A stretch of 1,545 bases of DNA from a plasmid. Both the position numbers and the translations under genes were made by a program. The notes beneath the pieces are model-generated. The model was not told where the DNA came from and ran no database searches. It saw only the letters and a list, made by a program, of their open reading frames with translations. This document shows, piece after piece, positions 1-1,545 of the stretch; the stretch's first letter is position 1; each line of letters begins with the position of its first letter. The DNA is taken from the NCBI RefSeq assembly GCF_054482525.1, contig NZ_JBTHVG010000001.1. The stretch is one strand, 5' to 3'.

Positions 1-49
1 ATGTGCAAATGTAATACCGTCACCCGCGACGATATTCCGTTTGCCATCT

Positions 50-74
50 GGTCAGGGCTTCGCCCCGACACCCC
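50..74. repeat. Left copy of a perfect 25-bp inverted repeat (ggtcagggcttcgccccgacacccc)
   Basis: Exact reverse complement of 1366..1390, verified base by base; the match stops on both sides. Confidence 0.9.
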
Positions 75-110
75 GCATCAGTGCGTACGTGCTCAATGTG
101 GTTTCCCGTT

Positions 111-172
111 CTCTTCCGCTTCCTCGCCCACTCGCTCACTAACGTTCGGTCGCTGGGGCTGCGGCGAGCGGT
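111..172 (+). other. ColE1-type primosome assembly site (pas/ssi)-like segment
   Basis: Exact 17-mer ctcttccgcttcctcgc (111..127) and exact 16-mer ggctgcggcgagcggt (157..172), separated by 29 nt of related sequence. This matches my recollection of the pMB1/pUC region just downstream of the ColE1 origin, where the spacing is 27 nt. A short ccgcatcag string sits just upstream (73..81), as in pBR322. Confidence 0.6.
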
Positions 173-476
173 GCCACCTCTCGCATGTTGTCGGTGATTC
201 CGCTGTTGTTCTTCTGGGGATGAGTCGTCAGACAGCCCTTCAAACGCGCTCAGAAGCTCTCAGACGCACGAAACGGGATTTAAATGCCCGTCAGGGCATG
301 GAAGGCGCGAAAAACGCTTACAGAGCGTTTCAGGAGGTCAGGCGCGCCGATACCCCTAGCCAGGGGCTTTCAGGTCGCCAGGAACCGCGTCAGCCCCCTG
401 CAAAGCCCATTTGCACGGTACAGGCAGCCACTCGGTTGGTAGGTGGTCGTAGACCGTCGGTGTTACAGCGATGGGG

Positions 477-526
477 GTCTGGGGTTCTCCCCAGACGGTT
501 TCCGGTTGCGCTCAAGGCGCTGCCGG
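477..526. other. Two adjacent strong stem-loops in a GC-rich, probably non-coding region (candidate structured RNA or origin secondary structure)
   Basis: Stem-loop A: gtctgggg (477..484), loop ttct, ccccagac (489..496), 8 perfect base pairs. Stem-loop B: ccggttgcgc (502..511), loop tcaag, gcgctgccgg (517..526), 10-bp stem with one mismatch and one G-T wobble. Further hairpins at 286..297 (gcccgtcagggc) and 312..330 (aaacgct / agcgttt). Confidence 0.45.
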
Positions 527-666
527 AACCGTGGCGGCTCGGTCGTTCTGGAGATCGGGGAGCAAAAACACGCAAGGGATTTTGAGGCGGCAAAAGAGCA
601 ATGCAGGATAGACAATCATGGTCAGAACGTTAACACGTAACCCCTGATTGTCCGCCTGCCGCTGGC

Positions 667-1146
667 TCAATTTGAAAACATGGCCATGATTCGGCGCTGA
701 ATATCACCGTCTTTGTTGACCAGTGTTTTAGTGACAAACGCCGCGTAGTTTTTAGATGTGTTGTATCCCTTCCAGACTTCATGTGGATCGAGTGCATACG
801 CACAAACCTTACCGGCAACAGGAATTCTGACTAACGCGTTTTTTGATTCTAAGTAGTTGAGCCAGCGCTTAATTGTGCTTCGGCTAACACCCAATTTATC
901 TGCTAAAAACTGCTGATCGGCAACAACAGCACCGCATGAGGGATCTATGTGCTCAGCTAAAAACGAGTAAAGCGGTATTGCTACAACTCCCTGCTTGTCC
1001 TTCGACAGTTCTCGGATCCTTTCCCAGCCCTTCTGATAAACCTGGGTGAATGGGCCGTTATTTTTCGGATCTGGTTCCGATTCTTTGTTTAATTTTTCCA
1101 GTTCTTTTAGACGCTTTTTTCGCTGCTCTTCAGTCCCGATATACAT
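667..1146 (-). CDS. Putative winged-helix DNA-binding protein, 159 aa; candidate plasmid replication initiator and/or autoregulator (Rep-like). Family not verified.
   Basis: Complete ORF on the minus strand: ATG at 1146..1144, stop TGA (tca on + strand) at 667..669, in-frame stop upstream at 1174..1176. GGAG Shine-Dalgarno (ctcc at 1154..1157 on + strand) 7 nt upstream of the ATG. The protein has a charged helical N-terminus (EEQRKKRLKELEKLNKESE) and a typical helix-turn-helix with following wing (ADQQFLADKLGVSRSTIKRWLNYLESKNALVRIP). The Rep function is inferred from context (upstream repeats, AT-rich tract, flanking pas-like and oriT-like DNA), not from recognised sequence homology. Confidence 0.8.
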   Translation of the reverse strand: MYIGTEEQRKKRLKELEKLNKESEPDPKNNGPFTQVYQKGWERIRELSKDKQGVVAIPLYSFLAEHIDPSCGAVVADQQFLADKLGVSRSTIKRWLNYLESKNALVRIPVAGKVCAYALDPHEVWKGYNTSKNYAAFVTKTLVNKDGDIQRRIMAMFSN

Positions 1147-1205
1147 GGTAAATCTCCACGGTCTAATGATGGCTCAAATATAAGCCATCATAGCTCAAAC
1201 GTAAA
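1147..1205 (-). promoter_or_regulatory. Candidate sigma70 promoter and RBS for the 667..1146 gene
   Basis: On the minus strand: -35 TTTACG (+ coords 1200..1205), 17-bp spacer, -10 TATATT (+ coords 1177..1182), then GGAG RBS (1154..1157) 7 nt before the ATG. The -35 is a 4/6 match to consensus; spacing is ideal. Prediction by eye only. Confidence 0.4.
1166..1191. promoter_or_regulatory. Perfect palindrome (9-bp arms atgatggct / agccatcat, 8-bp spacer) overlapping the candidate -10; putative operator
   Basis: Arms at 1166..1174 and 1183..1191 are exact reverse complements; the spacer caaatata (1175..1182) contains the candidate -10 of the minus-strand gene. This arrangement is typical of autoregulated plasmid rep or regulator genes. 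The palindrome is seen directly; operator function is inferred. Confidence 0.5.
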
Positions 1206-1222
1206 CCATGATAGGTCGACCT

Positions 1223-1272
1223 AGCTCACACATGCGTGAGCTAACCTTAGACCATGCATGCGTGAGCTAACC
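1223..1272. repeat. Iteron-like repeat cluster: two identical 16-bp direct repeats (catgcgtgagctaacc) 26 bp apart, the first embedded in a 7-bp-arm palindrome
   Basis: Exact copies at 1231..1246 and 1257..1272. Palindrome agctcac / gtgagct at 1223..1229 and 1236..1242. The core agct(c/a)a recurs at 1192, 1223, 1239, 1265 and 1284. Located just upstream of the candidate -35 of the HTH gene and next to an AT-rich tract (1276..1330). Confidence 0.75.
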
Positions 1273-1335
1273 CATAATGCAAGTAGCTAAAAAATCAATA
1301 ACTTACAAAATCGCCCTTAAATATCTTTTCTGCTG

Positions 1336-1365
1336 AAAGTGTTGCGCAAAGCGGAACACTTTTTT
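1336..1365 (+). terminator. GC-containing hairpin followed by a T-run; intrinsic-terminator-like on the + strand, or alternatively an oriT-proximal inverted repeat
   Basis: Stem aaagtgttgcgc (1336..1347) pairs with gcggaacacttt (1351..1362) with one mismatch, loop aaa, followed by further T residues to 1365. No convincing + strand transcript feeds into it, so function is ambiguous. Confidence 0.3.
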
Positions 1366-1390
1366 GGGGTGTCGGGGCGAAGCCCTGACC
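1366..1390. repeat. Right copy of the perfect 25-bp inverted repeat; coincides with the 5' part of the bom/oriT-like sequence
   Basis: ggggtgtcggggcgaagccctgacc is the exact reverse complement of 50..74. Confidence 0.9.
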
Positions 1391-1428
1391 CAGTCACAGA
1401 GCGATAGCGATGTGTATACTGGCTTAAT
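1366..1428 (+). other. ColE1/pMB1-type bom (oriT)-like sequence including the conserved nick-region motif gtgtatactggcttaa
   Basis: Recalled from the pBR322/ColE1 bom region: shared strings gggtgtcggggcg, tgacccagtcac, agcgatagcg and gtgtatactggcttaa occur in the same order and spacing, with scattered substitutions. By analogy the nick would lie in ctgg/ctta at about 1422/1423. Homology is from memory, not a computed alignment. Confidence 0.65.
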
Positions 1429-1545
1429 CATCTGCAAGCCTTGTCAGCCGTGATTTTTGCCAGATTTCGCGCTCTCCACGTTCAACAGCTCCATCATGGT
1501 TTTGCCGTCCGTTCACCGTTAAAACGCCTCAGAAATCGGGACAGG

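Follow-up and report, generated by a model that had tools for sequence, protein, structure and literature searches.

Facing oriT blocks of ColE1 and R64 type on a complete 1,545-bp Escherichia coli mini-plasmid

Two orphan oriT blocks on a single-gene circle

The plasmid contig NZ_JBTHVG010000001.1 (assembly GCF_054482525.1), 1,545 nucleotides long and hereafter called the window, carries two blocks related to origins of transfer (oriT), one of ColE1 type and one of R64 type, which are the subject of this analysis. A first-pass annotation, made from the letters alone, had placed a ColE1-family oriT (bom) at 1366-1428 and had seen no mobilization (mob) gene. The window is an entire plasmid: its full 1545 bp form a complete circular record and match NZ_CP182202.1, plasmid unnamed4 of Escherichia coli EC130 (pig faecal swab, China), with 100% identity along the whole length. 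Its nearest relatives are 1.55-1.57-kb plasmids typed Col(MG828) from E. coli, Klebsiella, Salmonella, and Shigella, including 1565-bp members of that type that are 96-98% identical. These relatives, a helix-turn-helix (HTH) RepA, and iteron-like repeats place the window plasmid among the Col(MG828)/pKL1-type mini-plasmids, pKL1 itself standing outside the set of sequences compared. pKL1, of 1549 bp, is cited as a small natural plasmid (PMC12839544).

repA is the sole credible gene of the plasmid and, among the window open reading frames (ORFs), the only one with a family match (HTH_36). In an NCBIfam search of these ORFs, no match came close to a curated cut-off and none was to a relaxase family. 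The absence of a mob gene thus holds for the complete circle, whose ORFs give only the 159-aa HTH_36 protein, and the ColE1-type oriT is truly orphan, because the window is the whole plasmid and RepA is its only credible product. Lacking mbeA and accessory genes of its own, the plasmid is not a ColE1-like mobilizable plasmid (pMOB) but an oriT-only plasmid (pOriT), with an oriT homologous to those of pMOB or conjugative (pCONJ) plasmids, no relaxase, and no type IV secretion system.

The nick-region motif that had been recognized at the ColE1-like site is present as the exact 15-mer GTGTATACTGGCTTA, or in its 16-base form gtgtatactggcttaa at 1412-1427. The 15-mer occurs once in the window (0.00 expected from 200 shuffles) and once in ColE1 (1476-1462, minus strand). 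BLAST against ColE1 (NC_001371) aligned window 1367-1431 with ColE1 1521-1457 (59/65 identical, E 3e-21), so that the coordinates first assigned to the site proved essentially exact. The remark that the sequence past the nick diverges from ColE1 was likewise right: homology ends at 1431 and comes back only at 111-172, across the circular junction. A third ColE1 block, at window 50-73, repeats the opening 24 nt of bom in inverted orientation. In other plasmids encoding Mbe proteins (Mbe+), the bom core is 92.8-96.7% identical, and the 61/61 core match, at 96.7%, is to a 3372-bp Mbe+ plasmid. A distant-mode search with 1330-1545 matched 4,342 plasmid records, 4,011 of them typed mobilizable; among the matches listed, those beyond the close relatives of the window cover ~1359-1434, and annotated ColE1-type plasmids with this block have mbeA and mbeC adjoining. 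As single-stranded DNA (ssDNA), 1330-1440 is predicted to fold into three hairpins (1336-1362, ~1365-1392, and 1395-1414; z -4.0).

We placed the predicted nick between 1422 and 1423 of the plus strand, from what we take to be the ColE1 site, 5'-(1469)CTGG/CTTA(1462)-3'. CTGG/CTTA is reportedly the site described by Varsaki and coworkers in 2003, and both its strand and its coordinates fit the motif as it stands in NC_001371. Mob genes enter the recipient last, a rule that the predicted nick fits. Alignment, anatomy, and family-wide conservation thus support the assignment of this block as a ColE1/pMB1-family bom/oriT with no relaxase in cis. A promoter-like match over the nick region (GTCACA-16-TATACT, 1393-1420) was discarded, the number of such matches being at chance level.

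By alignment, the stretch earlier called divergent is a second oriT, of IncI1/R64 (NikA/NikB) type and on the opposite strand. The minus strand from 75 to 1 and on from 1545 to 1533 is 81/88 (92%) identical to R64 (NC_005014) 17034-16947 (E 3e-32), where nikA follows immediately downstream of the counterpart block; an IncI-gamma/K1 plasmid has an oriT that matches equally well. Both 17-nt repeats, GCAAACGGAATATCGTC and GACGGTATTACATTTGC, are present and complementary at 14/17 positions, i.e., they form a 17-bp inverted repeat, and the two expected hairpins fold on this strand (z -3.5). The nick position established for R64/RP4 leads us to predict, by analogy, a nick between 1542 and 1541 of the minus strand. 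In R64, the strand bearing ATCCTG runs 5'-3' to ssb, psiB, and ardA in the leading region, in agreement with the predicted orientation. The homologous block abuts nikA in R64, pEC29-3, and EC130 plasmid unnamed2, whereas the window plasmid has no nik genes, which makes its R64-type oriT an orphan copy as well. Features of the R64 oriT, including the 17-bp repeat and the distal '8-bp' repeat, have been described (PMC3817090, PMC4743918). Because the window carries this R64-type oriT, 1,397 of the 2,533 records retrieved by a whole-window search are conjugative plasmids; a search with the R64-type oriT matched 1,912 conjugative records. The initial identification of a ColE1/pMB1-family bom without a cis relaxase therefore stands, but its corollary, that only a ColE1-type relaxase supplied in trans could mobilize the plasmid, is too narrow, since a single I-complex conjugative plasmid could also help through the second oriT.

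Around the circle, the order is hairpin (1366-1390), repeat (1395-1414), predicted nick 1422/1423, predicted nick 1541/1542, repeats (5-44), and hairpin (50-74). The two oriTs thus point towards each other, hairpins on the outside, and their predicted nicks lie 119 nt apart (1423-1541) on opposite strands. Pairwise BLAST detected no ColE1 homology in the intervening 1432-1532. The outer hairpins lie within a 34-nt inverted repeat (50-83/1357-1390, 88% complementary), whose 25-nt hairpin arms (50-74 and 1366-1390) are 96-100% conserved in relatives with ~85% identity in the flanks. The copy at 50-74 might at first look like a stray duplication, in inverted orientation, of the left bom end; we rejected this, as the loops of both copies vary independently and the element is the hairpin proper to the R64-type oriT. 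The GC hairpin is common to ColE1 bom (1521-1498), the R64 oriT (about 17034-17010, identical), and, in diverged form, the CloDF13 oriT (9752-9774). These three oriT families are served by unrelated or distant relaxases, and the mapped CloDF13 nick lies inside the hairpin.

The returning ColE1 homology at 111-172 resembles a single-strand initiation (ssi)/primosome assembly site, as described for ColE1-type replicons (PMC5935869). It is 82% identical to ColE1 1367-1308, 98.4% to the 3372-bp Mbe+ plasmid, and 75% to CloDF13. By analogy with ColE1, the block would act as an ssi; reasoning from the direction of the ColE1 leading strand, its active strand would be the window minus strand, and the priming site would therefore fall near the 3' end of the strand transferred by NikB.

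Features of the 1,545-bp window plasmid (one strand, circular; minus-strand parts are read downwards)
Feature	Position	Strand	Basis or remark
ColE1/pMB1-type oriT (bom), orphan	1366..1431	+	ColE1 BLAST; 83% invariant columns in 20 family members
Distal GC-rich hairpin GGGGTGTCGGGGCGAAGCCCTGACC of the ColE1-type oriT	1366..1390	+	ssDNA fold (~1365-1392); in ColE1 too
Nic-proximal imperfect inverted repeat, CACAG AGCGATAGCG ATGTG	1395..1414	+	ssDNA fold; ends 8 nt before predicted nick
Nick-region core GTGTATACTGGCTTA	1412..1426	+	Predicted MbeA nick CTGG/CTTA between 1422 and 1423
Main part of the R64-type oriT	1..75	-	R64 alignment
Rest of the R64-type oriT, over the circular junction	1533..1545	-	Identical to R64, EC130 IncI1 plasmid, and pEC29-3
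GC hairpin (R64 '8-bp' repeat), GGGGTGTCGGGGCGAAGCCCTGACC	74-50	-	Identical to R64; perfect inverted copy of 1366-1390
Repeat B, GCAAACGGAATATCGTC	44-28	-	4/17 positions differ from R64
Spacer, 6 nt	27-22	-	
Repeat A, GACGGTATTACATTTGC	21-5	-	16/17 identical to R64; 8 nt from predicted nick
Nick region ACATCCTG (8 nt), then TCCCG	4-1, then 1545 downwards	-	Identical to R64
Non-coding DNA between the facing oriT blocks	1432..1532		~91% conserved in family
ssi/primosome-assembly-site-like block	111..172		Collinear with the block after bom in ColE1
Terminator-like hairpin, then T-run, directly upstream of the ColE1-type oriT	1336..1362	+	Inverted repeat I9 and fold
Direct and inverted repeats upstream of repA, read as iterons/operator	1166..1272		Repeat families D1, D2, D5, I2
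repA	667..1146	-	159 aa; Pfam HTH_36, E 4e-6; HTH protein in the annotation of all relatives

Conservation and candidate helpers

Alignment of 20 distinct full-length family members revealed 83% invariant columns in 1366-1431, versus 24-32% in repA and the iteron region; the AT-rich spacer immediately upstream reaches 8%. To collect the 20 members, 21 nt of the R64-type nick region served as anchor, which biases conservation at that stretch but not at the ColE1-type block. Across 87 modules drawn from metagenomes and plasmids, the ColE1 nick motif shows no variation among those that have it, more than 50 relatives in all, and the hairpin stems are kept while the loops vary. At the R64-type oriT, the relatives display at least four alternative types of the 17-bp repeat, with co-varying arms and a fixed distance to the nick (e.g., relatives L022, L026, L036, and L008), which is the pattern expected of a protein-binding repeat whose specificity is swapped; these types presumably match different NikA specificities. 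Two alleles of the MbeA-type nic-proximal repeat occur as well.

In this last repeat, the window differs from every close relative and from ColE1 by GT>AG at 1398-99 and GA>AT at 1410-11, which are symmetric positions of the stem. The resulting AG..AT allele, CACAGAGCGATAGCGATGTG, is also found in the 3372-bp plasmid, which has a ColE1 replicon and encodes MbeA, B, C, and D. It occurs in 147 plasmid records, mostly of 3.37 kb and from E. coli and Salmonella, and all but two of these (145/147) are typed mobilizable. The allele is thus not a product of decay, because it exists intact in the Mbe+ 3.37-kb plasmids. The shared allele and the 98.4% identity of the ssi block lead us to infer that the window acquired both the allele and the ssi part by recombination with this lineage. 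The MbeA relaxase domain (first 250 aa) of the 3.37-kb lineage is 82-84% identical to that of ColE1 and of 5.6-5.9-kb plasmids; the latter domains are 98-100% identical to one another, and their plasmids use the GT..GA allele. On this sequence comparison, the likeliest cognate relaxase would be MbeA of the 3.37-kb lineage rather than that of the ColE1 lineage itself.

Matching helpers coexist with the family in nature. The sequence type 131 (ST131) strain JJ1886 harbours pJJ1886_1, a family member with both oriTs, together with the Mbe+ plasmid pJJ1886_3, and the two have an identical 61-nt ColE1-type core. In EC130 itself, the 99-kb IncI1 plasmid (unnamed2) encodes NikB and a NikA identical to that of R64, and its oriT is 92% identical to the one in the window. 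The strain also has an IncFII plasmid of 66.5 kb; in the 50 kb of it examined, the annotation shows an F-type tra region that extends from traM to traH. Besides these and the 99-kb plasmid, there is one of 151 kb.

Remaining features of the plasmid

The ORF at 1-585 (plus strand, 194 aa) carries the RefSeq label 'rep protein' and overlaps the oriT and the ssi block. It had no family match and is shortened to 26-73 aa in 4/8 relatives, for which reasons we did not count it as a gene; it probably is not one. The published requirement of pKST21 for 'two rep genes' may reflect a cis-acting site. Window 974-1290, comprising the N-terminal part of repA and the iterons, is only ~56% conserved, while the remaining plasmid is conserved at 84-95%, a mosaic that suggests, at the level of sequence, exchange of replicon specificity within the plasmid family. 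A sub-threshold Rfam match to proV inside repA was discarded. Just past the repA stop, 616-653 is 20 nt shorter than in the 1565-bp relatives and includes a stretch of ~30 nt that is mostly different.

The GC-rich non-coding segment 173-666 is the best-kept long segment of the family (94-95%) and is possibly the vegetative origin. It had no Rfam match, and its reading as a homologue of the ColE1 ori/RNAII was dismissed, as the local alignment score did not exceed those of shuffled sequences. Window 114-325 is ~82% identical to non-coding DNA located ~650 nt upstream of an IncX4 plasmid rep (L095 2501-2709). A consensus terminator scan made no call on the hairpin at 1336-1362.

The family is frequent in gut metagenomes, and several hundred complete E. 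coli, Klebsiella, Salmonella, and Shigella records match most of either a 571-base or a 216-base part of the window. A full-length copy, 96.5% identical, lies within the E. coli chromosome record NZ_CP146250.1 (1218136-1219708), as a result of either integration or an assembly artefact. The Shigella sonnei plasmid pR15.1832_1.5k (1542 bp) is a different plasmid without Col(MG828) typing, which carries R64-type oriT sequence at three places, some of them inverted.

Mobilization in trans and comparison with known systems

The reading that we consider quite probable is that the window is a complete Col(MG828)/pKL1-type mini-plasmid endowed with repA only and with two cis-acting oriTs, but with no gene for a protein acting on either. 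At the ColE1-type origin, the nick between 1422 and 1423 would be the work of an MbeA-type relaxase, aided by MbeB and MbeC, from a small co-resident Mbe+ plasmid. The likeliest source of these proteins is the 3.37-kb lineage, with which the window shares its oriT allele, and a conjugative plasmid would provide the pore through which the plus strand is piloted. The R64-type origin would be used by NikA and NikB from a conjugative plasmid of the IncI complex, with the nick between 1542 and 1541 and transfer of the minus strand. By either route, the 119 nt between the predicted nicks, made up of 1432-1532 and the bases past the nick in each oriT, would be the first DNA to enter the recipient, whereas the hairpin and inverted repeats would arrive last and, by analogy with R64, could serve termination and recircularization. 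The ssi block may help to prime synthesis of the complementary strand or of the lagging strand.

Several observations weigh against this proposal. The EC130 IncI1 plasmid is devoid of traQ-traU in comparison with R64, next to an IS100 element, and its pore is probably defective, and the plasmid transfer-defective, because of this loss. The EC130 assembly contains no Mbe+ plasmid either, and neither route may therefore operate in this strain. The differences from R64 in repeats B (4/17) and A (1/17) may lower NikA binding or termination, and the ssi-like block folds as ssDNA no better than shuffled sequences (z 0.0). Only two lineages underlie the association of the oriT allele with a relaxase lineage. 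MOB-suite types near-identical relatives inconsistently, as either mobilizable or non-mobilizable, mini-plasmids of the Col(MG828)/pKST21 type have been stated to be 'only transferable by vertical inheritance' (PMC8148099), and we found no experiment on the window plasmid or its family in the searchable literature.

The lack of a relaxase in cis, the description of the family as non-transferable (PMC8148099), the non-mobilizable typing of some near-identical relatives, and the absence of an Mbe+ helper from the EC130 assembly, would also be accounted for if the ColE1-like block were a decaying remnant of past recombination with a ColE1-type plasmid, and the mini-plasmid spread vertically or by transformation or transduction. 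We hold this to be unlikely: outside the anchor used for sequence selection, no other feature of the family is as invariant as this block, while the replicon around it has heavily diverged; its nick motif does not vary, and the window allele is an intact copy of the oriT of a living Mbe+ lineage. Moreover, orphan oriTs of such types have been mobilized experimentally in other plasmids (PMC4743918, PMC9282650). A still less probable alternative is that only the R64-type oriT is used and that the ColE1-type block is kept for the common GC hairpin or its neighbourhood, for instance as a large palindrome for termination. One helper would then suffice, I-complex plasmids are very common (the 1,912 conjugative records mentioned above), nikAB is present in EC130, and the two hairpin copies do make a conserved 25-nt inverted repeat. 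Yet conservation extends well past the hairpin through 1391-1431, over a nic-proximal repeat and nick core that have no R64 counterpart; the loops of the hairpin copies vary independently, which argues against a strict constraint on pairing between them; and the swap to the nic-proximal allele of the Mbe+ lineage is hard to explain without selection related to MbeA.

The GC hairpin could also be the nick site of a CloDF13-type (MobB/MobC) system. The CloDF13 hairpin GGGTGGTCGGGCGTGAGCCTGAC is visibly related to GGGTGTCGGGGCGAAGCCCTGAC of the window, the element occurs twice there, and the CloDF13 nick, quoted as GGGTG/GTCGGG (PMC5935869), lies inside the homologous hairpin. The exact CloDF13 nick sequence is nevertheless absent, the window being one G short, and BLAST aligned the ssi block only (E up to 0.1) and nothing of the oriT region. 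With a relationship visible by eye only, we rejected nicking of this type as very improbable.

The 1.5-kb plasmids of this family are very common and usually treated as cryptic, sometimes as non-transferable; the two well-preserved oriTs would explain the wide spread of a plasmid with a single gene. The window offers a compact natural system for mobilization by relaxases in trans from two helper classes, and the inconsistent classification of near-identical relatives calls for caution with relaxase-based mobility typing. More tentatively, Col(MG828)/pKL1 mini-plasmids might be dual-helper hitch-hikers, with two facing oriTs of different MOB families that each send a different strand and that swap alleles to follow local helpers, the GC hairpin of the ColE1, CloDF13, and R64 origins being a common termination or recognition module. 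We found no account in the searchable literature of a ColE1-type and an R64-type origin facing each other in plasmids of the Col(MG828)/pKL1 family. Orphan oriTs and multi-oriT plasmids are already established, and the window changes no concepts.

The closest parallel to the first origin is the bom of ColE1/pMB1 (pBR322), served by MbeA (MOB-HEN/MOBP5) with MbeB and MbeC. The 65-bp core is the same (91% identity, identical nick motif), as is the layout of GC hairpin, nic-proximal repeat, and 8 nt to the nick, followed on the same strand by the ssi block. Unlike ColE1, the window lacks mbe genes in cis, has the AG..AT allele of the 3.37-kb Mbe+ lineage, separates nick and ssi by 232 nt containing a foreign oriT instead of about 98 nt, and relies on a Rep/iteron rather than an RNAI/RNAII replicon. 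The second origin resembles that of R64 (IncI1; NikA/NikB, MOBP12) over 88 nt at 92% identity, with the same nick region, GC hairpin, and 8-nt spacing; it differs in that it does not stand beside nikA and is followed past the nick by sequence unrelated to the R64 leading region.

As a whole, the window plasmid is reminiscent of pEC156 (and of pKPN2 and pSe-Kan), likewise small plasmids without mob genes that carry two orphan oriTs of different types, one of them R64-like. The orphan R64-type oriT of pEC156 is 83.9% identical to that of R64 and was mobilized by R64drd11 (PMC4743918). These plasmids differ from the window in having a ColE1 replicon, a second oriT of F rather than ColE1 type, a larger size, and cargo. 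A further parallel is offered by pBuzz (Moran & Hall 2019) and pCERC7, pOriT plasmids whose oriTs derive from the I complex: a tiny cryptic plasmid, two inversely oriented oriTs, a relaxase in trans, and an I-complex helper (cited in PMC9282650 and PMC11389934). According to citing papers, the oriT region of pBuzz came from its B/O helper plasmid (PMC11389934), and the plasmid replicates as a rolling circle (PMC9282650); the window differs in its RepA/iteron replicon and in having oriTs of different MOB families. The two-oriT plasmids pEC156, pKPN2, pSe-Kan, and pBuzz have been described and shown to move (PMC4743918, PMC9282650, PMC11389934).

Dependence on Mob proteins is documented for ColE-type origins, since IncP functions on their own failed to move a plasmid that had such an oriT but no mob operon (PMC9282650). 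Oliva et al., as cited in PMC9282650, reportedly observed co-transfer of a plasmid bearing an orphan mob-associated oriT together with a Mob+ and an IncI1 plasmid. Relaxase-less pOriT plasmids with a ColE1-like oriT are common in E. coli and have been termed 'hyper-parasites', being dependent on a pMOB as well as on a pCONJ (Ares-Arroyo, Coluzzi & Rocha 2023, PMC10123127). That study derives small pOriTs mostly from ColE1-like ancestors by relaxase loss, whereas the window plasmid, on sequence comparison, appears to be an unrelated replicon that acquired its oriT blocks.

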